Positions 7,401-55,910 of a DNA stretch of 64,000 nucleotides are shown one piece after another. Under the pieces are notes generated by a model that saw only the letters and a list, made by a program, of their open reading frames with translations, ran no database searches and was not told the origin of the DNA. Location: assembly GCA_040954595.2 (NCBI GenBank), contig CM082579.2:10467625-10531624 (forward strand), given 5' to 3'. Numbering within the stretch: the stretch's first letter is position 1; every line of letters begins with the position of its first letter. The stretch is from Balanoglossus misakiensis. Taxonomy: Eukaryota; Animalia; Hemichordata. Made by a program: the position numbers and the translations under genes.

Positions 7401-10400
7401 ATACATACATCCATGCATACACCAAATAGTGCAGGAGCTAAACCCCAAATTTGTGTATAATTGTGCACTTACAAGTTTCACGCTTTTAACCCAACGTGCA
7501 CTATTTCAAAGTATGAATGTCTGTTTCTGGCCACTAGAGGGCGCTGTCATTTTAGCTCCACATTGGAAAATGTCCCCCGTGGGGCAAAGCATGACTGTAC
7601 CAAGTTTCATGCTTTTGACCTGAAGTGCACGATTTTTTGGTTAACTGGTAACTGCCCCACTAAAATGTGACCTAAAAATGTTATTATTTGGTAGACCAAA
7701 GAAATCCTGTCTTATACATTGCCGATTTTGAGCAAACAAACTGAATACAATGAAATTGGCCTGATTCGTTATCTTCACTCTGTCTAGACAGACGCCAGAC
7801 ACAATAGTAATTTATTGTTTGTACATGTACAAAGTTTAGATCACCTTTATCTGCAGGTGGTATTTTCACAATGTGATAGGTGGTGTAGAGGCCATACTTC
7901 ACCGCAATGTTGTACACAGTGCCATCATTGTCTACATGTGGATGGGCTGATGCTCCGTGGACTGACACAACTGAAGAGTAATCCACCTGAAGATTGTGGG
8001 AAAAAAACAATTTGGAAAATAAAGACAAGTACTAATAAATGTTCCTACATATCAATTTTCATGCTTGTATCCCAATTTGATACATTTTGCAAAAATATCA
8101 CTCTAATCTGCCCCACTAGTATGATCGGCAAGAAATTGTTTAATATTTTGTTTTTGTTTTCCGGTGACAATGCAGAATGGAAATGCTGTGCTATACCTAT
8201 AAAGATTCACATAAAGTTATCACAATGGACTACCTTTTCTCCCATTGTTTCCAATGTCTTCGGATCGACTTTTCGAATATAATGGGTTTCTGATATTCCA
8301 CAGAAATCTTCTCCCATCTTCACGATGTTAACAGCTCCATTGTCAGTGACTTCTCCGATTTTGAAGTAAGAGAAAAACCTCTGGAAAATGTTCTTGCATG
8401 GGTCTGGATAGGCAAACGTCCCAAATGCAGAACGGACAACACGATTAGCACCTGTAGCTTCTTTGAAATCGTCACTTCTTAAAAATCTGCTTTGGTAAGT
8501 AACCACGCCCTTTTGGATATTGAACCGGTGGATGTTAGAAAGCCCATCGAAGAAATGGTTGTAGTTGTCTTGACCAACTTGATAGACACTTGGGCCATTC
8601 CTAAGTAAGCTTCCTGATATCCATGGTGGTATGGTTCCTTTTGAAGAAGAAAAAATATATATAAACCGTAATTAAAACGGCAAGCAGCGTTATAGCAAAG
8701 CAGGGCCCATGGTGATGTGCAAAGGTAAAATACACAGAAGAGACCTCTATCGACATAGACGAACGGTAATTAAAAACCAACAAGCAGGAGGTAGTGGTTT
8801 TGTGAATAGCATTACAACATATTGACGATCATTGTTGCAGAGCGGAACAACATAATGCACTGCAATCACGGGCATCCTGGGACAATTAGGCTAAAGCTGA
8901 TCGACTGTTTCGCGTCATACGAGCACTCACGCACATCACTCGTCGCTCATGTCCTACCGCCTGAGGCGCACTTTTCACTGGCGATGTGACGAGCCCAGTA
9001 AGCCAACTTTTGGACGAACATTATCAACTTTCGGACCGACATTTTAAACTCTATCGAGCCAACATTTCAACTTTTGAACATGAAAACAGTACTCTAACGG
9101 TCATAGTAATTTTTGCAGTCCGTTCCCATAGAAACAAAATTTTATGTACGTCACTATAGCAATTATATCCTAGGGGAGGGGAACTAGCTCGAGCTTGTTC
9201 ATAAGAATATATGCTGACACCGGCATGCGTGAATTCATCCAATGTTGCAAATAGGTGATGAGAGAGCTAGCTGAAATGTTGGCCCGGACTTGAAGCTCAA
9301 ATGCGAGTCTGAATGCGCTGGCCTCGATTATGCGCCGTGCATGTCACGGTGGCAACTTGGTCGCGTCTCGTCCCGGGTGACACGATGACCGTGACTATTT
9401 TCTTGTTAAATTAGGTGAATTCTGACATAATTTTGACCAGAACGGGCCCCCATATTCTTCCGTCGACCGTAATCTGTGACGTAGGGCTACGTAATGGAGA
9501 GTAACACCTGATTTGACAAGACGACCGTGGCTATATGTAAGTCATAAAATTGTATTCAGAAAAAGGAGAAGGACGGCGAAAGACGGTGAAGGACAGCATC
9601 ATATCCATGAAATATAGAAAACGACTCTCACTGATAAATCTACAAAATAAAGCCGGCTACACTGATCACTCCAGATGGTATACAAGGCAATAGACACCAA
9701 TAACACCACAAATTATTAAAACTTGTAAAGGGCATTACCATTTCCCGACAAAAATCAACCGAAGGACACCAAAATCGCCACAAAATCAACCGCGAAGGAC
9801 AATGAAGTCTCCACACAATCAACCTAAATCCAATTGAAGGACACCAATGAGAAAATTGCCCGTTTTATATGTTACCTGCATGGCCCTCGCCATCGGCATC
9901 TATTATATTTTAAGATATCTATATAATTTGTTTTGTTTTGTGGAAATTTGAGCAGAATTCAACATCAACTACATTCTAGTCGTTTTTATTCACAAGCGGA
10001 GAGCTAGTGTACATCAGGTAGAAAGAGGTCTTTTCGTTCTTCTGTTTTCCCCGTGATTAGCCTAATGTATACATTAATTCACCTATGCAAACTTAGTCTT
10101 CGTTACCATGGTCGCGATTTAGCCAGTCACATTGGTCATGCGAGAAAAAAAGAACAGCGTCGCCACGTGTTCTCAACAAGAATACTTTTAACTATTTATG
10201 TGTATGTGTAATTACGGGCGAGTGAATTCCGCTGCGAAACAAATGTCAACGAACTTTTCTGTAGCCTTCGCGATCGCATCGCGTAACAACGTCATGTAGT
10301 TGCGTAACAATATGTTGGTTGGCATGTACAGTTTGTCAGGTATGTGGTTCTACACGATCGCAGAAAGTCCTTGCGGCCAATGTCTTTTGTCCGATCCGTA

Positions 10401-17873: not shown

Positions 17874-20800
17874 TTATTCTTTTTCAAAAATTCCATGCAG
17901 TCCATATGTAATATGGACTGGAACTTCAGCTCTGGCTATTTCTGTGAAAGACTCTGCATCCAGGATCAGTAGGAATGATGGATTGTTTTCTCCAACTGTC
18001 ATCACTGATGACAACACTATACCTGAAAGAAATCAAATACCATAATATTTATAGTCAATCACACTGTAGCTTCAACAGTATATTTAGGATTCAGTTGGCC
18101 CAGTTGCAGGCACTAGAGTTGTGTACATTGTGGGACTGAAAGTGTATGGTTGGGTGGTAGTATATATTTCCAATAGTAGGGTAGGTCAAATTACCGAACC
18201 ACACAATATTTTTGCATTGGCCTTATCTGAATGCTTTAAAATGATAAATATCTCAAATTGCAGTAATTTTTTCCAAGGTGACAAAATACACATCATGATC
18301 ATAAAGATTACCATCACATGATTAACAATAATTATCATGTAAATTGTCATATTATTAAATTACCACTACTTATGTGGGGAAAAAACACAGAAAGTACCTT
18401 CATCTTCTTTAGTGGCACCTGGTTTGGGCACAAAGACAGGTTCTGAAGGAAAGGCATCATTTCCGGCACTCCATTCTTTGTAGGATTTCTCCAAAACATC
18501 CCACTTCATCAACTAGAATATATAATGCAAACGATACATTGAATTACACAGGAAAATGCATTTGACTAAACGATTTAGTCTTATATTTATCACCCACTAT
18601 TGACATTGCTGAGAAATTTACACATTACCACATCACGTTCCTCCATCTGGTCCAGGAGCCCTCAGTAGACCGTAGCATAAAACACAAAATAAACCCAGAC
18701 CGAATAAGCTGCCCAATGAAGAAGACCCATTTACAGTAATAACATCAATGAAAAATAGCATCAAGGACACTGTGGTCCCATTTAGGGATTACACAAAAAA
18801 GTATACACTGGAGTACATATACAGACAGAGAGAGAGAGAGAGAGATCAATAGGCAAACATCACTGATCTGACTGACCCATAAGCTGCCAATGACATGTGT
18901 ACTGTACAAACACCAAATAGAACAGCTGGTTTAACAGTTAGCGAGTTATGTAAACATGTGCTTATACATACTTTTGCAAATACTCCACCCATACTGTATG
19001 CATATCTGTATTCTTTGCCATTCATGGAGTAGTTGATTCTTGGCAGTTCAACACCTGCAAATGAACATACTCGTTTAGTTTCAAGTTCAAGGGAACAAAG
19101 TCCAATTAAAGCTGCAAGCAGCATTGGCGGGACCCCAAGCGGACCTCACCAAATGCCAAGTAGGTGTGAACATTGGTTTAGGATCCCTGTAAGTTCATCA
19201 AATACTCGTCCATGTCCAAGAAAAATCAGAATTCCAGCCCTCAGGATGGAACATATTTGAATATACACATATACTTACTCTCATCATCACCAACATCAAT
19301 GATCTTTTCGTAAGTGCAGTGGATAGAGCCATCATCCAATTTCATTGCGGTAGCCGTGCTTTTCTCCAACGTCACTAAATTTTCACCAACAGGAGCTGTC
19401 TGCAACAGTTTCAAATTAAGAAAATTACATGTCAAGATTGATAAATCACCTCATACTGACCACAACCTGAACAACAATGGGCAGTCACCTTGGTGACATG
19501 CCTATGCACGGACCACTATTTGTTATATACACAAATGGCAAATACATATAATGTATAGTAGTGCAGATTAGAGTGATTGTTCGGCCAAATGTTTCAAATT
19601 GTGATACAAGCATGAAAATTGGTGCATAGGTATATAAAAGGCCACTTTTTAAAGAAAATAACACACATACAAATGATTTGTCATCCTACCTACCTCTTCA
19701 ATGTTCAATGGCAGGACAAAACGCCAAGGATGAACCAAGGATAAATCCCCTCCAGACTGCAGATCATCCATGTACAGACGTTTCAGTACATGCACGTCGG
19801 AGTAACCACACAGATCGACAACGAGATGACCATCCTTCTCGTAGGCATTCACATGGTGAAACGTGAAGAAGGAATCTGCAATAAATCTCGTCTCCAAAGC
19901 TTGTCCGGTCTCACGATTAATAACTCGGAACCGGTTTGGCCATTCTGGGTAGAACTCAAACGTATCCACGAAAGACCAACTGAGTAGATTAGATGCAAGA
20001 AGTTTCCAGACGTTGATGATGACCGGTTGTTCGACGAAGATGATGTACTTTTCACTCATGCCGAAACTGTGGAAGTACGACGGGTGCCCACCATGCGAAG
20101 GGACAGAGCAGATAATGGACGCTTTCTGATATGGATCCTCAACACCTGAACCATTAGTTTGAAAGAGTTAATTATATGTCATTTATGCTGACCAGCTGTA
20201 ACTGTGAGTTCATCTTAAGAAACCAACCAATCAGTAGCAACCTCTCAAGACAGTTACATGCGATGCTGTATTACAATGGCCTTGGTTTTCAAGTAATCTT
20301 TTCATTATTTCATATTGTAGAAAAGGATGCTGTCTTGCTTATCAACAATCACAAATGATATAATTTTACAGATTTGGAGAACTAATATCCAATCTCAACA
20401 GGATGGTTTGATCACACCCCTTGTGATCACATTATCCTACACCAGTATTAGCTGTATTAGAGAGCTATATTCATAGACTACATGTTGCATCAACAGTGAA
20501 GTACATGTACCTTTATCGGGTGGTGGAATTTTAATGATGTTGTAACTGCTATATTTTCCATATTTGATACCCATGTTATAGACAGTGCCATCAGGATCTG
20601 TGTGACAGTGAGCTGATGCACCATTGACGGCCAAAACTTTGCTGATATCGATCTAGAAAGAAGCATAGGGAGAGAAGTTATATACCAGTTGTATGTCACT
20701 TTCAAAGACATACATGTACACATGTAGTATATGTACCCCTTTGCCAGAATTTCTGTTCGAACCAGTGTTCTGTTGGTGTTAGTGTTTCCATGAAAATGTA

Positions 20801-22195
20801 TGGTATGATTAGCCTCAAATTAGCAGTTTTGTATACAAAAAGAATAGTGGCTAGACACATGTATGACAGACATGTTCCAAAATTAGTTGAAATCACATCA
20901 GAATAATACTGTAAAACGGGTTATTTTCGTGACAGGAAATTTTCGCAATATTAAAAGAGGCAACTGTTACGCGAGGATTTATTTTCACGTTCTCGTATTT
21001 CATTGCATCTTTATCTCCGAAAAACATTTACGCAACTTTTTATTTTCACGTTTTGTTGGCTCTCGCGTATTTCGCGAAAATTTATTGCTCGCGAAAATAA
21101 CCTGTTTTACAGTATACATGTACACCCGTATGGGATTTACTTACTTTGTCGCCAAGAGCGTCTAATGTTTTCGGATCAATCTTTCGAATATATGGCGTCT
21201 CCGTCATGGCATAGAAATCTTCCCCAATCTTAACCAAAGCAACACTGTCATTATCCGTCATTGGTCTAGACTTGAAGTGTGAAAATAATCGATGGAAGAT
21301 ACTCTTGCACGGGTCTGGGTAGGCATATGTACCAAAACTTGTCATCGCTATTCGATTGGCTCCAATCGCTTCCTTGTAGTCATCGCTCCGGAGAAATTTG
21401 TTCTGGTACGTGACCTTCCCATTGCTGATGTTAAACCTATGCAGCAATGCAAGTCCATCGAAATAATGCTTGTACTGCTGCTCCCCAACTTTATACAGTC
21501 CTTGGCCATTTCTTAAAAGATTTCCAGTCAACCATTCGGGAATTGTCCCTGGAATTAAAGAGGAATATGCTAGAATGTGATCAATAACTTTCTGATATAT
21601 AAACATATACATTTATTCAAAAAATAGCGTCAAGGACACGGTGGTCCGATTTAGGGATTACACAGAAAAAGTCTTCACCGGAGTAATTATACAAACAGAC
21701 AGACACAGAGAGATAGAGATCAACAGGCAAACACTGACTGACCCATAAGCAGCCAATGACATGTGTACTAGTACACCAAATAGAACAGCTGGTCTCTTTA
21801 AAGGGACAAAAGTCTCTCTCTCGCTGCCCTTGTTCCATTAATTATGTTTATTACGTATGACACAGTTTATATTATTCTACATGTGGATATATAGTGAATC
21901 AACGTTCAGCCACACACAACTTCCATCACGGCGTTACACAGGAACACACAGACCTGTACGTAGAGGTATACCCTCAACATGTAGCAGCACCCGCTACAAT
22001 CATTGCAGCTAGACTAGCTCAGCTGCGTGCAGGTCTGTACGCAGAGCTACATACAGACCTACCTTTGACTTTGGTTTCCATCGGTTCAGCATGATCCTCT
22101 TCAACTGGTAGGGATAAGAAGAATTTAGAAACTTGCTTGTTGAATTTCACATCTCCCTTTTCCGGCTGTTTGTCTGCTACTTCAAATGTCGCCAT
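17874..22195 (-). CDS. Carotenoid cleavage oxygenase (BCO1/BCO2/RPE65 family), paralog B, 8 exons, about 532 aa
   Basis: Exons (minus): 22063-22195, 21145-21548, 20511-20652, 19694-20145, 19279-19399, 18972-19054, 18398-18512, 17874-18022. Same intron positions as paralog A (exons 2-4 are 404/142/452 nt in both). Motifs [65 protein letters not shown]. Confidence 0.94.
18765..18930. repeat. Dispersed repeat of about 170 bp, present in introns 6 and 1 of oxygenase B (second copy about 21625-21793)
   Basis: tcaaggacac.gtggtcc.atttagggattacaca ... gactgacccataagc.gccaatgacatgtgtact ... caccaaatagaacagctggt in both places, same orientation. Confidence 0.75.
20907..21114. mobile_element. TA-flanked MITE (tactgtaaaac TIR); related copies at about 26600-26806 and 43954-44164
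   Basis: tactgtaaaac ... gttttacagta termini and a shared internal tctcgcgtatttcgcgaaaatttattgctc motif. Confidence 0.7.
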
Positions 22196-32575: not shown

Positions 32576-32960
32576 TGTTGGATAATAAAATTGATTCCAT
32601 TACCTTGTTGGCATTGTAAATAATATGAGAAGAAAAACATAATTAATATGGCACAACGAAAATGCTGGATTACAGTTGGGGTTCAATGTCATTACTATAA
32701 GTAGATCACCAAGTGTGCTGATGACTATGGTCACTGGTTCTAACATAACACATATACAAGACAGACAAGAAATGGTTGTTTGTCTAACAGAGTGTATTTA
32801 CTTGGTATTGTCTTAGCACTTATTTCATTTCAATGTCTGCTCAACAATTTTGTTTACAGTTTCACATTTGTAGAAATATATTAAATAAAATATTTATTTA
32901 TTACATTATTTAAATTTTCTCAGAGTGTTGAAATACATACACCTTAGCCATAAATACTAT

Positions 32961-33590
32961 GAGGTTATTACGAAAATACCACAAAGTATGCACGAGGACA
33001 TTAGCGCTGAGTATCGCCCGTCGCGTAGCGGAGGGCGATGCGCTGCGCTAATGTCCGAGTGCATACTTTGCGGTATTTTCGTAATAACCTTATTATTATA
33101 CATCTTACATCTCCGTTAGTTCTTGTGTTGCATGTTACTTGGCTTTCAAAACGCCCAAAATGCCGATACAATCGATCGAAAACCGCTCAGTTGACTCAGT
33201 GAGCAGCCATCTTTCTTTTTTGTTTACGTGTGCGCACGTGCGTTGGAATGCGGGCGCCTTGAAACCGTCCGAACAGCGCATACCTGTACACGGTGAGTTT
33301 GGGGCGCCTTGAAACTAAGGCTTATTTAAAGGTATACGGTCACCTATACAAATTTAGCCACAGTTACCATGGTAAATCGAGATCTAACCAATCACAGATT
33401 TTCAGTGGGTGGCACACGCGAAAATAAAGCGTTCTTTAGAACACTCAAATACGCCATTTCAACTATATATGGCGATATGTAAATTGGAGGTGACCGTATA
33501 CCTTTAACGCGCGTTCCGTACGTACCGTTCCGTACGGCTTTTTATTGCACGCCAAAATCTATTGTTCTCGGCACTAGATGTATAATAATT
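32961..33590. mobile_element. Non-autonomous element with a hairpin of about 130 bp at one end (Crypton-like), containing a nested TTAA MITE
   Basis: aggttattacgaaaatacc.caaagtatgcac ... gtgcatactttg.ggtattttcgtaataacct palindrome at 32962-33090; terminal agatgtataataa complements internal ttattatacatct. The insertion is absent from the paralogous sequence at 40219-40403. Confidence 0.6.
33330..33503. mobile_element. Kolobok-like TTAA MITE (related sequence at about 2363-2500)
   Basis: TTAA|aggtatacggtcacct ... aggtgaccgtatacct|TTAA. Confidence 0.8.
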
Positions 33591-34752
33591 TTTTTTATCA
33601 AAGTATATATACTTGGAATTTACCCGACAATAAGTCAATCAGAGACTTTGTTTTCCTATGATTGGACAAAGGATATACATATGTGTAATTAAGGATGGGT
33701 AAGAAATTAGCCCTGCCTTCACTATAACCTTGCACCATTGTTCAGTTTATATGTGAGTGACTTCAAGGGGACGCTCATCTGGAAATTTGAATGCCAATGA
33801 TATAATATTTTAAGCCTAATCACTCCGCTCAAGAATATTGCCTATTGTTAAGGATTGGGAAGCTCGCATTGTTGAAGGCATATCCTGAGTGAAGTGCAGG
33901 CCAACAAACCAACGGAAAAAAGGGGGGGGGGGCGGGTGGGCGGGCGGGTGGGGAAATTGCCCCTTACAACTAGTGCCTATCCGTCCAACATTCCCTTTGG
34001 CCCCATTTCTTACCCCCTATCCTTTGTTATATTCCTTGTAGCTTCTGCCCTTCCCTGTGCGAGGAAATGACACAGAGTCTTCTGCCCTGTTCTTCTTTTA
34101 TACCTTTGTCATTCTTATGAATATTAATGAGATAACACCTGGCGGAATATTATCGCTACGTGATTAGGTTTTGAATAATATAATATTTAAAGCCTAATCA
34201 CTCCGCTCAAGAATATTGCCTATTGTTAAGGATTGGGAAGCTCGCATTGTTTCCGGCTATCCCCACCTCAGTGAAGGTCCTACCAGGTATCATAATTTCC
34301 CACACTCACACCTCTCATCTCCCAATCCTAACATACATTCCCCCTTTCCTAAATATCCCCAAACCTCAATGACCTGGTCCCTGTCTAGGGGCGCCCTCTA
34401 TGTCCCCCAGGAATATTGTTCTCTTACGCCAACTCCAATTCCCATGCTGGGATGTTCAACTGGAAAGAAACGATTCACACTATGATACCTCAAAAAATAA
34501 AGCATTTATGACCGTTTTGACTTCTTTTTTTTTTAAGAGGGCACCCCCAGACAGGAACCTGCGAATGGCAGGGAGCCGAAAAGGCAAGGGCTTAAAGAGT
34601 CGCCCCCCTGTCTGAGGATCCGGGAATGTCAACAAAATACCACATTATTCAAAGAATAACACATCAAGTGACTGGAATAACCGTAATGCGATTTACTCTT
34701 TATTGCTTTTAAGACACATGCTTACATCGAGTGACGTTTGAGTTACAACAAT

Positions 34753-37300
34753 TTATTTCTTTTGCTTACAATCTCTAGCAAAATGGCCTTCGGCACCACA
34801 GACGAAACACTTGGAATTTTTGGGCTTCGGTGACCTAGATTAACTATATCTACCATAAGGGGAATACTGACGATCAGGCTCCTTTGTATTACGAGTAAAT
34901 TTTTCAACTTTAGCTGCAATTTCCTCCTCCTCCTTATTGCCCAAAAGTAACAAAATTAATTGGCCAGCATCCTGACCAAACTCATTAGTTTCAAACTGGG
35001 CTAGCACGGCCCTATATCTAGTAAGCTTAGGATGAGCGGTTTTCGTGGCACGGTCAACAAGAACACGAAGAGCATTCAGCAGCTGTGGTCGTATGTTCCA
35101 CTCTCCCGACGTGGCAATCTCCATAACCTTTCGATGCGCGTCTGCTACAGAGTTGTTGTCTGCCATTTGCTGCAACTCATCCAATTTTTTCTGCATCACC
35201 TGCAGTTGTTGCTTCACCTGCAACAGAAAACACATTCTTACCAATTTGCATGGTACTTATTGTTTCCCCCACATTATGTAACACGACCCACTTCGGGCTC
35301 TGTCATTTGTGAAGCAAGTCTAAACCTCCAAGGCGTAGAACTAAGTACACCTATATTTTCCATACCTTTACGCCTTGACTCGCGTAAGGTGTAATTCTCA
35401 CATACTTTAACGCCTTGACTCGCGTAAAGTTTTTTATGAATACCATTACGCCTTGACGCGCGTAAGGTGTAATTCTCACATACTTTAACGCCTTGACGCG
35501 CGTAAAGTTTTTTATGAATACCATTACGCCTTGACGCGCGTAAGGTGTAATTCTCAAATACTTTAACGCCTTGACTCGCGTAAAGTTTTTTTTTTATGAA
35601 TACCATTACGCCTTGACTCGCGTAAGGTGTAATTCTCACATACTTTAACGCCTTGACTCGCGTAAAGTTTTTTTTTTTTTTTATGAATACCATTACGCCT
35701 TGACTCGCGTAAGGTGTAATTCTCACATACTTTAACGCCTTGACTCGTGTAAAGTTTTTTTATGAATACCATTACGCCTTGACTCACATAAGGTGTAATT
35801 CTCACATACTTTAACGCCTTGACTCGCGTAAAGTTTTTTATGAATACCATTACGCCTTGACTCGCGTAAGGTGTAATTCTCACATACTTTAACGCCTTGA
35901 CTCGCGTAAAGTTTTTTTATGAATACCATTACGCCTTGACTCACATAAGGTGTAATTCTCACATACTTTAACGCCTTGACTCGCGTAAAGTTTTTTTATG
36001 AATACCATTACGCCTTGACTCACATAAGGTGTAATTCTCACATACTTTAACGCCTTGACTCGCTTAAAGTTTTTTTATGAATACCATTACGCCTTGACTC
36101 ACATAAGGTGTAATTCTCACATTCTTTAACGCCTTGACTCGCGTAAAGTTTTTTATGAATACCATTACGCCTTGACTCGCGTAAGGTGTAATTCTCACAT
36201 ACTTTAACGCCTTGACTCGCGTAAAGTTTTTTTATGAATACCATTACGCCTTGACTCACATAAGGTGTAATTCTCACATACTTTAACGCCTTGACTCGCG
36301 TAAAGTTTTTTTATGAATACCATTACGCCTTGACTCACATAAGGTGTAATTCTCACATACTTTAACGCCTTGACTCGCGTAAAGTTTTTTTATGAATACC
36401 ATTACGCCTTGACTCGCGTAAGGTGTAATTCTCACATACTTTAACGCCTTGACTCGCGTAAAGTTTTTTTATGAATACCATTACGCCTTGACTCGCGTAA
36501 GGTGTAATTCTCACATACTTTAACGCCTTGACTCGCGTAAAGTTTTTTTATGAATACCATTACGCCTTGACTCGCGTAAGGTGTAATTCTCACATACTTT
36601 AACGCCTTGACGCGCGTAAAGTTTTTTATGAATACCATTACGCCTTGACTCGCGTAAGGTGTAATTCTCACATACTTTAACGCCTTGACGCGCGTAAAGT
36701 TTTTTTTATGAATACCTTTACGCCTTGACGCGCGTAAGGTGTAATTCTCAAATACTTTAACGCCTTGACTCGCGTAAAGTTTCGTATACAAGCCTTAACT
36801 CCATTTACCTTGTCTCCCACACCTGGTCGCCCACAAAGACAAATAAAACGATTAGCATACTAAGTAGGTCTTCAAAGTAAAAGGACTTGTAGGTGGCAAC
36901 CACCAATATCATCTACACGAGACTATGAAGTTTCCAAGCTCATAGAAATGCCACGACGAAGACAACAAGGAATAAAACCGACCTGCACCAAAAGTAACTC
37001 TGGGCTGCAAACAGAACGCACCTGTATGTCATGATGTTGACTATCTTGAGCCTCCGAAGGGGCTTCCAAAGGCTGAATAGCTTGTTCACCACTTGTACTT
37101 GCAGTAGTTGACCCCGTCGAAAGACTGGTAGGTAGGTGACGTTCTGGTCTGGCTGGTCTATCAGGACGATGGGCGTCCACAAAAGCTTGTGCGATATCAG
37201 AATCAGTGGCCGCTCCCCGAGTTGGCTCACGAAGTTCGGCAGCGTCTACAGCTACGTTGGAAGTGGTTTTCTGAGCAGCTACGTCTTGTCTCGAAGCCAT
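34753..37300 (-). pseudogene. Gag-like protein with CCHC zinc knuckle; two exons, one in-frame stop
   Basis: Exon 37022-37300 (MASRQD...HDIQ, donor CAG|GTGCGT) joins in phase 0 to exon 34753-35217 (acceptor tgtgttttctgttgcag|; VKQQLQVMQKKLDELQQ coiled-coil-like). After TAA at 34840-34842 the frame continues SRSPKPKNSKCFVCGAEGHFARDCKQKK* (CX2CX4HX4C). AATAAA on minus at about 34699-34704. Confidence 0.75.
35358..36783. repeat. Minisatellite of about 79 bp, 18 units, two hairpin cores per unit
   Basis: Unit atgaataccattacgccttgactcgcgtaaggtgtaattctcacatactttaacgccttgactcgcgtaaagt(n); 18 copies of ggtgtaattctca counted. Confidence 0.97.
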
Positions 37301-37336
37301 GTTCTATACCGGTGGAGACTGCCCTGACTGTGCGAG

Positions 37337-37375
37337 GAAATGACACAGAGTCTTCTGCCCTGTTCTTCTTTTATA
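37337..37375 (-). promoter_or_regulatory. TATA box and Inr-like motif inside the 5' repeat of the retroelement
   Basis: Minus strand TATAAAAG (37375-37368), TCATTTC about 30 nt downstream, then aacATGG at 37300. Confidence 0.55.
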
Positions 37376-37573
37376 CCTTTGTCATTCTTATGAATATTAA
37401 TGAGATAACACCTGGCGGAATATTATCGCTACGTGATTAGGTTTTGAATATGAATGCCAATGTAAGTGCCGCCTGAGCGCGTCTGACCATGGTCTGACCT
37501 TCTCTTTGTCTGTGGCTAGCTACATCACAACTCCCAGCAAGGGGTATCAGGTTTTCTTGGGCCTCTACTGTCT

Positions 37574-40106
37574 ATGGTGGAAGCAAAGCGGGCAAAATAC
37601 GGCTGGATACTAGACTCAATAATGACCCGGATTCTAGGCATCGACTTCGCCCCGTTGGTGGTGCCTTGGCACCGGCGGCTGGAGACGCTGGCGGCCGCCC
37701 ACTATGTCTTCAGCCGCGTCGTCCTGTGCACGCTCCCCAGTGTGCTGGTGCTGTACCTCCTGTTCGCCACCTCCTACTACTGGCTGGCCCTTCTCTACCT
37801 CACCTGGCTGGCCGTGGACTGGCGCACACCCAGACGGGGAGGCCGGCGGGCCTCCTGGTTCCGCCACTGGTGGTTGTGGAGGTACCTCGCCAGATATTTC
37901 CCGGTGAAGCTGGTCAAGACGTGTGAGCTGGACGCCAAGAACAACTACATATTCGGGTACCACCCGCACGGGATCCTGGCCGTAGGCGGATTCACCCATT
38001 TTGGGACAGAAGCCACGGATTTTAGTCAACTGTTCCCAGGAATCAAGCCCTACCTCTTGGTTTTGAAGATCATGTTAGCTTTACCATTTGCTCACGATTA
38101 TTACATGCTAGCGGGTAAGTAAGCACGTATGTTATCAGTAAACGAAATATTACAGAGGCCAGGTTTACAATCAGAGTAATCCATGTTCAACCACCAGTCA
38201 CATTTTACAGTGTTTACCAAAAATTACATTTTATTTTTCTGAAATTGGCATCGTAGGGTGCTGCGATGTGAGCAAAGACAGTATTCGCCACATCCTTGAA
38301 GAGGAAGGCACGGGCAATGCAGCCATCATTTTGGTCGGTGGTGCCAAAGAATCGCTGGAGTCGACACCCGGCCAATGCAAAGTGCTTCTGAAGAACAGGA
38401 AAGGTTTTTGCAAGATGGCACTCAAGCATGGGTAAGGTTTGTTTTTCAGTTTGTGTAGTTTTCTGTACAGGCACTGAATGACAGTTCACGCATTGTACGT
38501 AATCACATTATAAGAATTGCATTTTGGGTAAAAGGTCGACACCTCTCTGTAGTAGGACCTTGAAGAAATGATATGTTAACTATATTTCAACACTTTCTTT
38601 GATCAAACATTTCTGTCTTTGTAGTTATATTAAAATCACTCTACTTTTTTTTCACATTTTGTTATTTTTTCAAAGTTTCAGAATGACCCATTGTCACTTT
38701 AGCGGCTTATGAAATTCCATTTCTTAAACATGGCAAAATTCGGCCATCTTGAAATTGTGTCGACCACATGAGATTTTCATCACTCACCTATAAGGTAGCA
38801 AAAACCTATTTGAGGTAGCTCGAGAGTTACATATTATCGTAAAATGTATAGCCGCCAGTTTAGTCCTAAAATTTTAGCTCTCGTAGTAACATACGTGAAC
38901 AACCGTTGTGCCGTTTCTGTCTGTTTGTCCGTCCCACTTCCAGCCTGTCTGTCAGTTGACATGATACGATCATTCAGAAATTATCATTTTCTGTCAATAA
39001 TCGAAGTCATGACCCAAAAATTAACAACAATCTGACAAAAGCTGTCGACCATTTACATGTATGTAAATTTACCAGACTCACAGCCCTTTGTACTGAGGAC
39101 CCTATGTTTTCTAATTACCGGTTCTCTTCACCAACACAACGTTATCAACTCACTGTCTGGACGTACAACATATGTATACCCATTTCTCTGCAGTGCCCAT
39201 CTGGTGCCCGTGTACTCCTTTGGCGAGGAGGAACTCTACACAAAAGTGGACAATCCCACGGTCAGGAAAATACAGAACACGCTTAAGAGCTTGGTGGGCT
39301 TGACCATTCCTGTCTTCCACGGGCGTGGATTTTTCAACTACAATTTCGGACTTCTGCCTTACAGGCGAGCCATCAACACTTTTGGTAAGTTTCCAGTAGA
39401 CTGCGCCTATCTGCTTCAGGACGAGACATTTAAGAGTGAAGACTGTGAAGTCCAGAAAAGTGAAGCAGAAACGGTTGTCTGCTATAATTGTTAGATGACC
39501 TGAATGAATTCTGGCTACCATACATTGTACTAGGTTTTTACTTCGCGCTGAATTGAACTCTATAGGTAAAGGGTCGACAACTCACTGTAGTATAAAGAGA
39601 GAGAATAAGTGATGTGTTGATTGTATTTCATGACTGCCTTTTTAGTTACATTCAACTTTTTTTTCAAATTTTTATTATTTTTTCTGTTTCAAAGTATCAG
39701 TTTAGCTTATGACCTTCCATTTCTTAAACATGGCAACAATCGGCCATCTTGAAATTGTGTCGACCATATGAGATTTTCATCACTCACCTATAGGTAGCAA
39801 AACCCTATTTAAGTTATGGAAAATTATATTGCCCCCTTTTATTGCCCGTATCACTTCAGATAAGTGAGTGTTTCGATGGACCGTACTTTCCTTTTATTGT
39901 GTTCAGTAAGATGGAAGTGTATATCACTCTTGTTTGATCTTTGCTTTGCAGTGGGTTCTCCGATTCCAGTAGAGAAGGTACCGGAACCGACCAACGAAGA
40001 GTTGGACTCGCTGCATCGCCTTTACATTGAGAGACTCAAGGCTCTCTTCGACGAGCACAAAGTCAAGTTCCCAGAATATGCTAGCAAAGAGATCATCTTC
40101 ATATAA
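37574..40106 (+). CDS. DGAT2/MOGAT family acyltransferase (2-acylglycerol O-acyltransferase-like), 4 exons, about 353 aa
   Basis: Exons 37574-38114, 38257-38431, 39194-39384, 39952-40106, all GT-AG. Motifs FAPL...RRLET, TPRRGGR, YFPVKL, NYIFGYHPHG, VGGAKESL, RKGFCKMALKHGAHLVPVYSFGE, GLLPYRR, VGSPI, LFDEHK. The start could instead be the ATG at 37622. Confidence 0.93.
38520..38830. repeat. Dispersed repeat family (also about 39560-39815 and 52640-52925)
   Basis: Shared gtcgaca..c.ctgtagta ... ccatttcttaaacatggcaa..atcggccatcttgaaattgtgt ... gagattttcatcactcac. Confidence 0.8.
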
Positions 40107-40717: not shown

Positions 40718-43700
40718 TTACTTATCAAAACTCTGTGTCGCCAGATATTCCACACCAACCTTAGAATTCCATGTTTTTGAATTTTCAAATCCATTCTTTC
40801 CTTGTGAGTAATCCTGCCAGGCCTGCTTTGCTTCTTCTTCTGTAGTCATAACAAACGAACCTATTAAACAATTAACATAACTTTATTGATCAAATTATCC
40901 TTGTCGGTCGACTGACTTTGCTCTCTCCCTCTCACTCACTCACACACACACACACACCGTGACCAATATTTGCTTGAAATACTGTGTGAACACAACTCCC
41001 AGTGGTGTGTGTGTGGGCCTGTATTTATCTGTGTCTGTCTGTCTGCCTATCTATCTTAATATTGGGTTTTGTTTTTCCCTTGTTTATTCTTCGATATTAA
41101 ATGACGTCAGACGCGCTCTGGCGGCAGTTACGTAGGCATTCAAATTTCCAGATGACGGGCAACTTCAACAACGTGGTCCAGACGAAGACTGTGCAGACGA
41201 AATGCCATGAGGCTGATGAGGCACCATACCTGATACATGTTACGTGTTTGGTGGTTCTAAAGTAAAAACATACTCGGAAAAACTTTTACTGGATGTCGAA
41301 ATATTGCTTGCCCGTCATCTGGAATTGACTACATTGTGGGTCACATGGCCAGATCACATGATTGATAGTAAAGAATATGAATAAGTTCTCCAAAATCCTT
41401 CATTCATTGAATGTCAACTGATATCAGTGCCAAGATCTTTACCTTCCCACACAACTGGTTCTTTCAGAGGTTCACCAGCAATCAGGACAAAGTGGCACAT
41501 TTTGGAATCCTGAAACAGAATTTACACAGTATAGTTTAATCCTTTCACCCCAGCAAAATCTATCACCTTTAATGTTGCTGTGTACTGTTGTCTGCCAGCT
41601 GTTTTTAAGTGTCCACTGCACACGACCGGCAATGCCTGGCCACAAGCTTATACCATGGACGTCCATGCTTATACTAACACCGATTCGACACTTGTCAGTT
41701 TTTTATCATTCTTTTGTCAGTATTTTACAAAATATATGTGTGAAATCACTGAATGAAAGCCTCGAGTCGACACTTAGTCGTCAGTTTTTTATCACCTTTT
41801 TAATTTGCCAGTATTTCCACAGTCCCCAAAAGAAACAAAACACGCGTGTCTTTGTTGGTGGACAAGTACATGTACAAGGTTGACTGCCATGACAGGAACT
41901 TGTTCTGAGGTCAGAATCGAAACAAGAAAACCGTATATGACTCTAATAATAGCTAGACACAAAAATCTTGCTATAAAATGCACAGGAAACCATTCCCCCC
42001 CCCCCCCCCCCAGCAAAAACAACGACATGTCAACAAGTTGTAAGGAGTAGAAGAAGAAGAAGATTCAAATACTTGCTTTGTTTTCTGCCTCAATAAAGGT
42101 GCCATTGCTGAGAACCAGTGTACAATGCGTTTCCCCCAACACCATCTTTGATGCCGGACCTATGCAATAAATCATGTCAAATACAATTACGTTACATACT
42201 CTGTCCTTTTTGTATCAAACTTGATCTCCATGAAGTCAGCGGATGACGTGTTTTACGACGAAACCTGTCTAAACTGAAAACAAAAGGGACAGCAGAAATT
42301 GTTCGGTTTGCAGAGGTGTCTGGTTTATAGAGGTTCTTTTAACACGAGGTTCTATGTGAAAGGGACTGAAAAATGTCTTTGGTATAGACAGGTTCCAGAT
42401 TAGACAGGGTTTGGTGTACTAGATTTGAGAGAAACCAGTTCAGTTATGGCACATCATGGCAGTTTACTAGCACATGTACAAATTCTATTGCCATGGTTGG
42501 CATCAATCAAGGCAATTATAAAGATCGTGTCAAATAAAAGCTTGGCATGATGCTTTTCTAGATGCAAACTTAAAATCTCTTTCTGAAGACAGAATGTTGT
42601 ATATCGGAAATGAAAACTATTACCAAAATGACACTTTCCAGAGAGCACATAAACAAATGCTGTCCAGTCTTGAGGAATGGCTTGTTTCAGTTTAGCACCC
42701 TGTTTTAGTTTGAAGTCCAGATACATTGTTGGTGTCCGGGTCCTCACTTAAGACTTTGAATAGGGGAATATGAAAAAAATATACGAACAAATATAAAATA
42801 TTCTCTCCCTATGATACAATGACAAAAACAGTGCATACTTAGGACAAGCATCTGTGCATAATCATGCTCTCAGAAAAGTTTTGACCAAAAAATACTACAC
42901 ATACTGTCATTTTACCAGATTAAATCTGATAGTCACTTGTTAAGCCTCATGAGCTGCAACTCGATAATTTTTGAAGCTTTAAATAATCTCTGATTTATAA
43001 ATTGGTAGTCAGACAGACAGACCAGAGACGAATGGATGAAAATGTTTTAATTTGGATTTACTAAAATCAAAAATGGTCCCAAAAACAGAAATAAATTCCA
43101 AAATTGAATACCTTAACTCCCATGGACTCTCCGGCGATAATTTTAACCGTGATCCCATTCTTGTTGACTTTCGGTATGTCTTTATCTGCCAATTCTTGAT
43201 ACTGAGGATCTATCATCTTATGTTCTTTGCCAAGGTTAACCCAGAGCTGTAGACCATGAGCCTCACTTTGGCCAGCTGGCATTTCTGAATGAACAATACC
43301 TTTACCTGCTGTCATCCACTGAGTCACCAACCACCCAACAACCAAACAACAAACATAAAACATGGGTTATATATATTTCAAAATTTTTCATGTTGACTGA
43401 GGAATCTGCAATGTTCTCCACTAGGGCAGTGCATATGTACGTGGAATAGAAGTTTAAAATTAATTCAAATAAAACACTAGCATCATTTGAAAAAAGGCAG
43501 TACACTTTTTCGCACTTTCATTTCCTTTCACTAAAACATTTGATGAAACATACGAAATCAAAACATCCCCCCCCCCCCCCCCCGCCCCTGTGGTCTTCAT
43601 TCTGTGCTCTCTTTGGTTTATTATTGTTAAGAAAATACTCCAGTATGATGCAATTTGTGCTGCTGTCTTCCAATGTGTTAATTGTGAGTGAGAAACACAG

Positions 43701-47689: not shown

Positions 47690-50600
47690 ATGAAGCTGCT
47701 GATGATACTACTGGTGTTGTTCTACATACAAGACAGACGTGTACTGGTAGATTGCATGAATAATGGCCAAGCCAGAACTCCACCAATGGGTTGGATGGAT
47801 TGGGAGAGGTTTCGTTGCAATGTGGACTGTGCCAATGATCCGCTCAATTGCATTGGGTAAGATTCCAATTGAAGAAAGACGCCTAATTTCCAGTAATTAT
47901 CATTCTTTGAGAAAAAATGGCCACAAAATTGAAGAAATATCAGTACAGTTGAAATTTCTGTCAACTTGTACCTATCGTTTGGGAGAAGGCATTACCTGGT
48001 ATGCATCCTTGGTCATTTTGTAAAAGTGTTGGTGACTTCTTGGTGCTTTTTTATCCATTCCAGAGAAAAACTGTTCAGAGACATGGCTGATCACATGGTC
48101 AAAGATGGTTATAAAGACGCAGGCTATGAGTATGTCTGTATTGATGATTGCTGGATGTCCATGGAAAGAGATGCCAATGGCAAACTGTATGGTAATACAA
48201 CTCGATTTCCAAGCGGTATCAAAGCACTTGCAGACTATGTAAGTTGTGAGATCAGTTCCATTCTGGTGTAGTGGCTGCTATGGTACTAGCCTTTGGGGGT
48301 TGTCTTTTAAAATGTTTAAACAGTCTCTAGTTATTGCTGGTTTACATTAGGTAATGCTAGCTTATCTCAATAATGATGATGATGCGCCCCATAATGGACT
48401 CAAGCACAAATTGTACTCCATAATGTGCTTCACACATTATTTCGTAAAGTTTTCATTTTATCAAGTATTGGTCATTTGGGTGTACAGTTTATTTGAATAT
48501 TTACATGAATTTCATCTCTGCGAAATCCTGACGCTTGGTATAGCTTGATGCAGCATACAAAAATACCCTTTCAGAGATTTTGGCTTTCTGTCAATTTTTG
48601 AAGTCCAAAACCCCAAACATATATGATAGGGATTATAATTGTGATACTGACTACACAATTGAAAAATCCAGATTGACCTCATTTTGCAAAAAAAATATCG
48701 TATGGTTTCTGGTTTAACCCTTTCACCACCATGGTTCAGTCCAAACCCATCGTTGTACTGTGATTGAATATGAGAGTAACATATGACAATCAAAACTCAA
48801 TAGACTGGATCAAAACTAATTTATGCAATGCGCATATCTCAACTAGGTTCATTCCAAGGGGCTAAAGTTAGGAATCTATGAGGATTATGGAACGCACACA
48901 TGTGGTGGCTACCCAGGCAGTCTCGATCACCTCGAAGTCGATGCACAAACCTTTGCCGCTTGGGGTGTAGACTACTTAAAATTTGACGGTTGCTATGCTT
49001 CTCCTTCACAAATGGACAAAGGCTATCCACAGATGACACAGGCTCTGAATAGCACTGGGCGTCCGATAGTGTTTTCGTGTAGTTGGCCAGATTATCAGAG
49101 GGCAAAAGGCATGAAGGTAGGCATTGACATCTTTAATACTCGTTTGTACCGTAGGTTCACTCCAAAGGCTTGATGTTAGGTATTTACGGAGACTACGGTG
49201 ACAAGACATGCATGGGTTACCCGGGCTCCGTGAATCACTTGCACGTTGACGCGCAAACTCTGTCCGATTGGGGAGTTGACTTTTTCAAAGTGGACGCATG
49301 CCACGCTGACCCCAAAGACTTGAACGAAGGTTTTCCAAAATTGAGCAAAGCACTCAACAAAACAGGATCACCCATTGTATTTGCCACCACTTGGCCTCAC
49401 CACCAAGTCAAGCATGGCATTAAGGTAAGAGTCAGATACTCCGTCTGTAGTAGTATGTGACACAACCTTATATGCCGATGAAAATTGTTACATGTACATG
49501 TATCCCAGACCCACTAGGTGAACTTGCACCATAAAAATACACTGTGAATGAAATCCCAGCATGATCCCTTACATCAATTCATTTTGTACGTTACCTTAAT
49601 ACTTATTGCTCCCTGATGGAGTGGGTTTGTGTCCGACATTTGTCACTATGAGAGCAAAAATAACTGATAATTGAATGTATCAGTTCTAATAAAATAGGAG
49701 CATTGTTCTTTGACGTTGTGTACAGGTCATGTTTGAAAGTAGTGCGATATTTACAACCCAAAATGCTTATGTAAATTGTATGTGAATACAGATGACTAAT
49801 AATTAGCTTGGTGATGTTATACAGCCAAACTACACTCTGATTGGTGAAAACTGTAATCTGTGGAGGAACTACATTGACATCCAGGATTCATGGGAGAGTG
49901 TGACCAGTATCATTGATTATTACGCGAAGGAACACGACGTCTTGGCAGCAGCGCAGGGACCTGGTCAGTGGAATGATCCTGATGAGGTAAGACACAATGC
50001 CAGATGTTCATCTGTCTGTGGAAACATGTTTTCGGCCAGACCCGTTCACACCTGGGTTTTTTTTTTGCTTGGCCAAGTACCTTGCTAGGACAAGGGCCTA
50101 GCCTTTTTGGGTAATGTGAACGGCCTAATAAGCTCATATACTCAGTACATGTACATAGAGTCACTGATAGTGGTATACAACATGTTTGATATTTAGATTA
50201 TATGTAATTGTTTGGTACGGGTCTGGGTAATTGTTTCTCTTGAACACAATTTTGAAGGTTATTTTGATCGTTTTTTTCTCAGAAATGCAAAATATTTGAT
50301 TTGAACTCTTATTTGAATTTAATCATATACACTCTGCTGCCTCTTTCCCACACTTAGGTTTTATTTCACGGTGAGTGTTTCGTAAAACGTAATGGCCAAT
50401 TGGGGTATCTCCAATTGGTTTTCTGCCTGGTTTCTTTCGTAAGGGCATGAGCAATATGACATCGGGGAGGGTACATGTCATGAATATACATGTACCAGGA
50501 TATAATTTTTGATACCAAGATGGTGCGTGTATTGTAGCTACGCATGGCTGGTGTCGCTCTTGAATGTGATAACAAGTGTGAAGTTGTTTTTGAATGGTTT

Positions 50601-53705: not shown

Positions 53706-54818
53706 TCACTGTAATTCCAAGTAACCATTGGCTTCTTGCTTCTTTCTATCTTTCAAATTCTGACGCCAAGTTATAACTGCTACCAAGCCCGAACTGAAGA
53801 GCACTAAGCAAGCTCCAAGTATCTCCCACAAACTGGGTATTCTATCGACTACAATGTACTCCAAAGAATAGGCTGCTACTACCTCCACGTTAAATAATAA
53901 CGTCGACGTAGACGCTGTCTGAAGTTGTAGGCACCGATAAGACGCCCATTGCGCAAAGGCCGTCGATAAAGCGACGCCTGCAAACTGGCCCATCGTTTTC
54001 GATTCTATATCCCAATCCACTTCGCCAAACAAGTACATGGCGGGGAGTGACACCAGGGAGGCGATGATGGCGTCGTAGAATAATGATGTCAATACATGAA
54101 GACGTTCTCCTAACCCACGTGCTACGACATAGGCGGTGGCAAAACCCACAGCACTTGCCACTGCCATCACGTTGCCCAAGAGAATCCTCCGACTTTCATC
54201 CTCTTCATCGGTCTCGTCACCAACATCGCCATGTTCACCCCCACCTCCTCCTCCATCACCATCGCCAAAAATGAAGGTTGGTTGTGTAATCATCAAAACT
54301 CCACTAACATTCAATACTATGGTGATCGCATCTTGTATACGAAGCATCTCTTTCAATGCGACGCAGGCAAAAAGAGACGTGAAGACCGGTAGAAGACCGT
54401 TGGTGATTGCGGTGACGTTGCCCGTGGATATCAACGTCAAAGCCACCACGTCTCCAACCATACCAACTGTGTAGCCGATGCCTTTACCAATAACCAGCGC
54501 AAAATCTTTCACACTTTCAAGCTTCAGTTTGACACGGTGGAAAATCATAGGCGGAACCACCACCAATCCAATCGCCAGGACGCTGATGAAGTTGATTTGC
54601 AAGGCAGGTACATCGTATCCAATCAGATGAACGAATATTGAACATGTAGCGAAAGAAATGCCCGACGTAAGTCCCAGCGCTACACCATACCCTGTCGTCA
54701 AGACTCGCTTCGTACTTTCCCAACACGTGTCGTCTTCTTTGTAGCGGCCATGATCACTGCTGAGAGTGCCATTACTGACGGGAGATGTCCCGTCTAGTAG
54801 CTGATTCTTGTCAGTCAT
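53706..54818 (-). CDS. SLC35G-like EamA/DMT drug-metabolite transporter, 370 aa, single coding exon
   Basis: About 10 hydrophobic segments in two EamA-like halves (PVFTSLFACVALKE, GVLMITQPTFIFG, EVVAAY, PSLWEILGACLV). A pyrimidine-rich acceptor 7 nt upstream of the ATG suggests a 5'UTR intron. Confidence 0.88.
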   Translation of the reverse strand: MTDKNQLLDGTSPVSNGTLSSDHGRYKEDDTCWESTKRVLTTGYGVALGLTSGISFATCSIFVHLIGYDVPALQINFISVLAIGLVVVPPMIFHRVKLKLESVKDFALVIGKGIGYTVGMVGDVVALTLISTGNVTAITNGLLPVFTSLFACVALKEMLRIQDAITIVLNVSGVLMITQPTFIFGDGDGGGGGGEHGDVGDETDEEDESRRILLGNVMAVASAVGFATAYVVARGLGERLHVLTSLFYDAIIASLVSLPAMYLFGEVDWDIESKTMGQFAGVALSTAFAQWASYRCLQLQTASTSTLLFNVEVVAAYSLEYIVVDRIPSLWEILGACLVLFSSGLVAVITWRQNLKDRKKQEANGYLELQ

Positions 54819-55910
54819 CTTACAACTACGGATATAAAGGTAAACGGAAGAAAGTAAAATCGTGTGGTGTCTTCAAAAAATCTTTAAAAAACATTCTTAG
54901 ATCTATATACTATCCAACAATAACCTTCTAGCACATCGCAAACCTGGTCCCATGCATAGCATAGCTATTATACAAAAAGTCATATTGTAATCTTATACCA
55001 ACCCGAGTTTTTGTAAATGCCCGAGAAAGAAGAAGCAAGCAGTCCAATCGCTAATTCATTAACCAGGTAGTTAGACACCCGCCAGATGCTTGACACCAAA
55101 TGGTTTGTTTCTGAGGCCCAGCAGAAGTCGATCAAACAGACAACCACACATCCGAACACTCTCAATATATTTGCAACAAAAATAGATTCGCAACCCTCCT
55201 TTATATGAGTGGGTTGATGGATTAAAAAAATATGAAACATATGGCATCGACCACATTAAGTGCAATCATGTATTTAATGACCAAATTGAGTTTTCGATCC
55301 GTAATAATTTAAACAATTAATACCAAAAGTTTTACAGTGTACACGTGAAGGTTATTGCTATTACAGTTAGCGAACTTGATAAACGTTTGTGACAAAAATA
55401 TGATGAGATAAAATAACTGTAATGATGCATAGACATAATTATATAGTGTGTGACTTGAAAGTTTATAAAATATAACATAGACTGCAGTTCATTTTGTCAC
55501 CTGTTCAGAAAAGAATGCAAAATTATCATTCGTAGGACGGAGAGCGCGATGACTAGAATCATATACCGAACATGGAAAGTGAACAAACACCGTCGAAGTA
55601 TAAGGTTACCTTGGCCAATTTTTATTTTTCCGGTTGAAATTTCTGATCCTACCAGCACTAAGGTTTCTATTACTACCGGTAGATGTGATGGGTGATGGAA
55701 TACCTGAGCCATATGGAGAATTGTTTTTTTTTTAAATAATTATAAATTTATAAATACAAAAATAAACGGCAACCTTCCTTTCCGGCATAATGGCGTTCGT
55801 AAACTTTCTCCAGATAACGGGATACTTTATAACACCATAGTTCATGAATATGTAATTAAGTACAATGTACATGTTATATGTGCTTCGAGTTTCGTTGCCT
55901 AACATCGGAA

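Follow-up and report, generated by a model that had tools for sequence, protein, structure and literature searches.

A probable internal-deletion derivative of ALOG-type, PAT-like DIRS retroelements, flanked by a perfect 12-bp duplication, in the acorn worm Balanoglossus misakiensis

In a 64,000-nucleotide window of the Balanoglossus misakiensis genome (contig CM082579.2, positions 10,467,625 to 10,531,624; coordinates below are those of the window), we found a 3.65-kb Gag-bearing element of the ALOG lineage. On balance, we favor the reading that it is an enzyme-less internal-deletion product mobilized by a longer relative, and that the 12-bp duplication around it is a one-off scar finished by repair. 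New here are the palindromic, recombinase-site-like B/A junction and the perfect 12-bp duplication around this copy. Neither of these, nor a 1.4-kb array of 79-bp units in the gag intron, had been included in the original prediction, which described an intact, gag-only satellite of the Ngaro/PAT type.

The element lies on the minus strand and has the predicted order A1, gag, B1, A2, spacer and B2. The A1 repeat (37328-37450, 123 bp) forms the 5' end and is identical to A2 (34055-34177) at 123/123 positions, while B1 (34178-34251, 74 bp) directly adjoins A2 and matches B2 (33800-33873), the 3' end, at 73/74 positions. A2 and B2 are separated by a unique 181-bp spacer with a C-rich tract (33874-34054), and a C-rich tract is present in relatives too. 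This arrangement, with its near-identical repeat pairs, is the split-direct-repeat layout of DIRS elements. The TATA/Inr signals claimed for A1 were also located, with TATAAAA at 37375 and TCATTT at 37343, both upstream of the ATG at 37300, forming a putative promoter. A simple tandem duplication was rejected because the sequences following A1 and A2, and those preceding B1 and B2, differ. A LINE-type retrocopy was rejected since there is no poly(A), the intron is retained and both ends are complete, and a Penelope pseudo-LTR was rejected since the spacer is unique, Gag is present and there is no partial tandem.

As predicted, no ORF for reverse transcriptase (RT), RNase H or recombinase was present; the ORFs of at least 110 aa scanned outside the element gave host families only, with one of the scans covering 22 of the 39 listed ORFs, apart from the array frames and several overlapping frames. 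Of the RT/RNase H and tyrosine recombinase (YR) that make up an autonomous form and are present in relatives, this copy retains only a stub of pol. The element thus shows what is expected of a non-autonomous PAT-like element, intact split repeats without enzymes, in several copies (one sample).

Gag exon 1 (37022-37300) has 93 codons of low complexity with an AFVxAH motif common to Ptychodera homologs, and matches the N-terminal part of a homolog from Ptychodera flava (P0012 residues 1-95, E 0.003 against the window). It ends in CAG/GTGCGT and is followed by a predicted phase-0 GT..AG intron of 1804 nt (35218-37021), behind whose pyrimidine-rich CAG exon 2 (34752-35217) is predicted to begin in phase 0 at 35217; relatives have the same exon/intron layout. 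The intron contains a tandem array (35362-36782, unstranded) of 18 units, each 79-bp unit consisting of two ~40-bp halves. Where relatives offered 900 nt or more of sequence ahead of the Gag core, 20/28 loci had an array there, and none of 47 had one within pol; judged from these loci, the gag intron and its array are thus inherited family traits, from which it would follow that the unspliced RNA is the copied template. Around the splice donor (36898-37103), a second subfamily ~92% identical to this copy was seen in read run X2, with the GT donor kept.

Exon 2 is 50-59% identical to seven proteins, five of them from Ptychodera, and encodes a helical core followed by an in-frame TAA (34842-34840) and then a CCHC knuckle. 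It should be noted that "Gag" is a positional name, resting on position and the knuckle; a Foldseek search with the predicted fold, which has five helices (pLDDT 84), gave nothing at E ≤ 0.001. Many P. flava "uncharacterized proteins" (P0003-P0016, P0078-P0090) are the Gag of this element, and several of them end before the knuckle.

No letter other than those of the TAA was found at its position in the listed contigs of all three read runs, and 34843-34698 (146 bp), including the knuckle, is missing from a variant with a depth of 135 out of 361. Because of these two observations, the family does not appear to have retained a whole Gag, and the element's own knuckle-less Gag likely contributes little. 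The description of the element as intact and gag-only therefore does not hold, since the stop precedes the knuckle and a frame-broken pol 5' stub is present, and the idea that it keeps Gag as a maintained gene fails with the loss of the knuckle. A Ngaro satellite whose working Gag is kept under selection, as originally proposed, would be consistent with the open reading frames of both exons, with the length of exon 1, which differs between the main contigs and the window by a net 12 nt and so stays in frame, and with three of seven tested differences being synonymous. However, the common stop, the knuckle-deleting variant and the ALOG/PAT-like affinity of the element make this reading extremely improbable.

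That affinity was traced through Gag. A Gag profile search gave 71 representatives, 20 of which were looked up, and the named ones came from Ptychodera, Branchiostoma, Mytilus, Acropora, Exaiptasia and Tegillarca; one match (P0029) was discarded as false. P0084, a cluster-mate of one profile match, combines gag, RVT_1 and ALOG, the combination by which ALOG-class DIRS1-type retroposons are recognized (PMC3537659). Our set of relatives consisted of 80 of the 108 metagenome loci matching a stretch of the P0084 RT. In this set, the same Gag family stood upstream of RT in 42/80 loci (38 of the 50 with room for it), the order gag-RT-ALOG-YR was found in 23/80, and the window Gag matched 30/80 at E ≤ 0.01 (best 3e-14). 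Both of the two relatives scanned with Pfam (L012, L053) contained ALOG (1.7e-26, 2e-24) and Phage_integrase, and both loci having both ends (L034 and L052) showed A1..B1A2..B2. The Gag/zinc-knuckle ORF is thus homologous to that of ALOG-YR elements, and by this homology it groups with the ALOG-recombinase (PAT-like) DIRS elements rather than with Ngaro. The Ngaro label is disfavored because of this link, and ALOG-type PAT-like is the better one.

A methylase-like domain, expected after RNase H in PAT-like elements, had no Pfam match in the two relatives scanned (L012, L053); DLMA/YxFPP-type motifs like those of that domain were seen in relatives. The ALOG class is reported to include a methylase-like domain where its domains are described (PMC3537659). 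Searches with the Gag profile in viral contigs and metagenome contigs gave pattern matches and no relative, and P0084 found nothing in viral contigs. In several relatives (L001 11900-12879, L004 1-799, L015 3970-4574 and L010 6003-6452) the sequence runs from YR through B/A back into gag or closes on itself, and L053 (1-55/6668-6722) falls in the same group; these loci may be tandem copies, circles or assembly collapses at the split repeats.

Downstream of gag, a predicted pol splice acceptor (AG 34461-34460) precedes a pol 5' stub of ~85 nt (34374-34461 in all; IPxWE ... GAPRQ) whose frame is broken. In relatives, pol also starts behind a pyrimidine-rich AG, in several cases with an [IV]PxWE motif, and NIPAWE and GAPRQ of the stub match the Ptychodera gene model P0016, which joins this Gag clade to pol. 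The two ordered motifs outscored 100/100 shuffles, for motif windows picked after the match had been seen. A profile of 26 pol N-termini gave no match to the stub, homolog searches with the stretch after gag (P0009) and with the Ptychodera pol start found nothing, and tblastx/blastn of 34760-33800 against the 80 relative loci gave nothing useful. The open frame FPDPQTGG (34641-34483) was rejected as pol, as it has no homolog and is probably intron-like sequence.

The internal deletion point lies at about 34374. One X2 read contig (depth 997) tracks the window over 34620-34374 with 3 substitutions, indels and more bases there, then leaves it at 34374 and continues for 246 further unlike bases, and likely represents the longer parent. 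The complete relatives L034 and L052 are 5.7 and 6.1 kb long, compared with 3.65 kb here. We therefore regard the element as a likely internal-deletion derivative. In the satellite proposed originally, non-autonomy and the split-direct-repeat DIRS order stand, while a purpose-built satellite gives way to a deletion product.

Between the deletion point and B1 lies a G-rich, putatively non-coding 3' stretch (34252-34373), assigned by position and composition relative to relatives, to which it aligns poorly; it occupies the place after the YR ORF in relatives and is comparable in length and G-richness. On the other side, a long predicted stem (34375-34559; ~34559-34538 paired with 34398-34375, z -3.26) ends at the deletion point, and could be a packaging signal or could have guided the deletion. 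Folded as single-stranded DNA, the 3' repeats did no better than shuffles (z -0.37).

The copy is young, because its repeat pairs differ by one mismatch in 197 bp, which puts divergence since insertion at no more than 2.8% (upper 95% bound), and the predicted recent activity is in line with this. Other copies exist, as the original prediction required. Six contigs in run X1 and five in X2 depart exactly at the A1 start (37450) into differing flanks, and depth over the 5' body was 349 (X1) and 735 (X2), compared with 22.6 and 113 over a neighboring host exon. These data suggest several to about 15 copies, with the cautions that depth does not translate directly into copy number and that all three runs come from one sample. 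No full-length partner was seen in the host among the read contigs of this sample. The contig continuing past the deletion point may derive from such a partner, and the predicted mobilization in trans would likely involve a full-length relative.

The element is surrounded by exons of DGAT2-like, PDGF/VEGF and RPE65-family genes. It lies upstream of a DGAT2/MOGAT-like ORF and faces away from it, 124 bp from the first ATG of that ORF (37450-37574), and may affect its promoter. Elsewhere in the window, we noted two tandem RPE65/carotenoid-oxygenase family genes (6440-8671 and 19649-21612), EamA transporter exons (53706-54872) and alpha-galactosidase exons (47933-48271). Other probable small mobile elements include a palindrome with 66-bp arms (32959-33093) and dispersed repeat pairs (32822-32960/40219-40357 and 38705-38792/39705-39792). 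A 182-bp MITE-like element bounded by perfect 20-bp terminal inverted repeats (33326-33507) had a summed depth of up to 475,000 in X1. An Rfam scan gave one chance match only, outside the element.

The B1/A2 junction (34160-34201, unstranded) is palindromic, with 18-bp inverted arms matching at 16/18 positions around a 6-bp spacer, TTATAT (34183-34178), and its palindrome score was reached by 0/200 shuffles. Tyrosine-recombinase sites such as dif and loxP are built in this way, with inverted arms on either side of a 6-8-bp spacer. Relatives have the same junction plan, mostly AATA, a 6-bp spacer and TATT. Their palindromes beat shuffles (0-2 of 40) in 14 of the 26 loci scored, a count in which some loci may lack the junction; three of the 14 are not B/A junctions, and the palindromes in L036/L037 (position 6123/5896) and L050 were accordingly excluded from the tally of ends. 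The architecture of the B/A junction suggests that it is likely the site for the partner's ALOG tyrosine recombinase.

The ends of relatives follow simple rules. All of the right ends (8/8) keep the whole spacer and run into TA, and at all left ends for which the donor is known (5/5) only the final 1-3 bases of the spacer are shared, so that the crossover always maps to the spacer/A edge. The relatives that give these rules are distant (Gag 22-41% identical) and older, and both ends are available in two only. On each strand, a tyrosine recombinase usually cuts at the spacer's 5' edge, which makes the spacer/A edge the cut of the antisense strand. Such a cut would be compatible with a single strand exchange and subsequent processing by the host.

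Perfect 12-bp copies of CATTGGCATTCA stand directly outside both ends of the present element, the left one (37451-37462) adjoining A1 exactly and the right one (33788-33799) adjoining B2 exactly, both on the minus strand. A paralog of the target (41106-41168) aligns to one copy without gaps and needs a 12-nt gap for two; therefore, 12 bases were doubled at the insertion site. The target is itself a dispersed repeat (37487-37451, 33787-33762, 41106-41168) with a depth of about 2000 in X1. DIRS elements are reported to lack target site duplications (TSDs; PMC8969392, PMC3266345), and the curated table of Ectocarpus split-repeat DIRS elements gives TSD 0 in all 14 rows with a value (PMC12477816). 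We classed the element as a variant and not a plain DIRS member because it departs from this feature. No split-repeat element with a TSD was found in our literature search, which does not prove absence.

Both end rules are broken here, as the right end has CA instead of TA and the left end has no spacer match. A single reciprocal exchange cannot use two target positions separated by 12 nt; repair therefore likely produced one of the ends. The duplication is most likely a one-off scar, with a small chance of its being a family trait. In favor of a one-off event, the duplication is absent from both complete relatives (L034, L052), and this copy departs from the 8/8 and 5/5 rules; against it, no sister copy was seen with both flanks.

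Alternatively, the 12-bp duplication could be the normal footprint of this lineage, produced by a 12-nt staggered cut of the partner (an altered recombinase or another nuclease) with blunt element ends. The perfect duplication abuts both ends with no bases lost or added, the empty-site paralog has a single copy, of about 2 million position pairs drawn at random from the window 90 gave a match of 12 or more (probably mostly through its tandem repeats), and the Ptychodera-like Gag clade stands apart from those whose ends could be read. However, the junction retains the family AATA-6bp-TATT plan, in P0016 this Gag clade is linked to the pol start that ALOG-YR elements have, and curated split-repeat families list TSD 0. 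The loose-end consensus of sister copies at 37450 also starts with a spacer-matching base, weakly (agreement 0.5-0.6), and one contig among these loose ends may be an internal junction. We consider a normal footprint unlikely. We would give similarly limited credence to the related proposal that in an acorn-worm-type lineage the recombinase makes one strand exchange at the spacer/A edge, the host finishes the process, and 12-bp TSDs are routine.

Capture of a linear cDNA at a staggered DNA break by host end-joining, without a recombinase, would explain why neither junction obeys the rule of the relatives, and DIRS-1 cDNA is reported as mostly linear and single-stranded in the work on that element (PMC7192593). 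Against such capture, which we think rather unlikely, both ends are base-exact at the spacer/A edge, suggesting recombinase cleavage of the junction, and the target appears to resemble the start of A (common ATTCAAA). An ordinary insertion followed by later duplication, through slippage or conversion with the empty allele, or else an assembly artefact, gains from the repeat nature of the target, from two CATT motifs 6 bp apart and from the fact that no read was seen spanning either junction. It is nevertheless quite improbable, since it requires changes at both junctions that jointly yield an exact 12-mer at each end.

Under the preferred reading of a repair-finished scar, an unspliced RNA would run from inside A1 to inside B2. 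By the established split-repeat model, the partner's RT would rebuild the ends on the internal B1A2, and the cDNA ends would meet as B/A, the presumptive site of the partner's ALOG recombinase. The crossover made by this enzyme would normally join the spacer/A edge to a short TA(T) and duplicate nothing longer. In the present case the target may have been an imperfect CATT site beside a second CATT, where the recombinase likely joined one end and repair the other 12 nt away, and gap filling would have copied the 12 bp.

Integration in the DIRS order has hardly been tested, and the specificity of the recombinase is stated to be unexamined (PMC7192593). A routine 12-bp footprint would mean a tyrosine-recombinase retrotransposon with a true TSD, contrary to the classification rule of the order; should duplications recur, the absence of a TSD could no longer serve as a classifier, and the second strand would be host-finished. 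Should this copy stand alone, a single scar would be all that sets it apart from ordinary non-autonomous elements. Because the family is young, multi-copy and has a defined recombinase-like site, it offers dozens of natural junctions to read, and its relatives show ALOG-type elements with split repeats and an array-filled intron apparently carried through reverse transcription.

TOC1 of Chlamydomonas, among the closest known systems, has an internal 76-bp array, and we know of no target duplication for it. Set beside the present element by its description (PMC9940879), TOC1 is likewise a non-autonomous DIRS retrotransposon of the PAT group, from a green alga. Ngaro elements share the A1..B1A2..B2 layout, but lack the methylase domain and ALOG (PMC9210276, PMC8547959), whereas the Gag of the present element is ALOG-linked. 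The ALOG-domain DIRS1-type retroposons, as presented in PMC3537659, have in common with it the zinc-knuckle Gag family of RT-RH/ALOG/YR-encoding elements and marine invertebrate hosts; unlike them, this copy has no enzymes. Iyer and Aravind 2012 (PMC3537659) mention no more than "terminal direct repeats of 159 bp" for the Ectocarpus ALOG copy, and the split repeats, introns and palindromic junction of ALOG elements were read from the loci of this analysis and not from that paper. The Ectocarpus elements PAT-N1_Ec32 and Ngaro-N1_Ec32 are alike in being non-autonomous, with A-int-BAB split repeats and internal tandem repeats, and PAT-N1_Ec32 carries a pol fragment, as here. They differ in having TSD 0, lengths of 7.8-9.5 kb and a brown algal host, with no gag intron mentioned in their entries (PMC12477816). 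Non-autonomy combined with split repeats, internal arrays and a pol fragment is already on record in the account of PAT-N1_Ec32 (PMC12477816), with TOC1 as a further case, and by descent and structure the present element is of that kind, except for its TSD.
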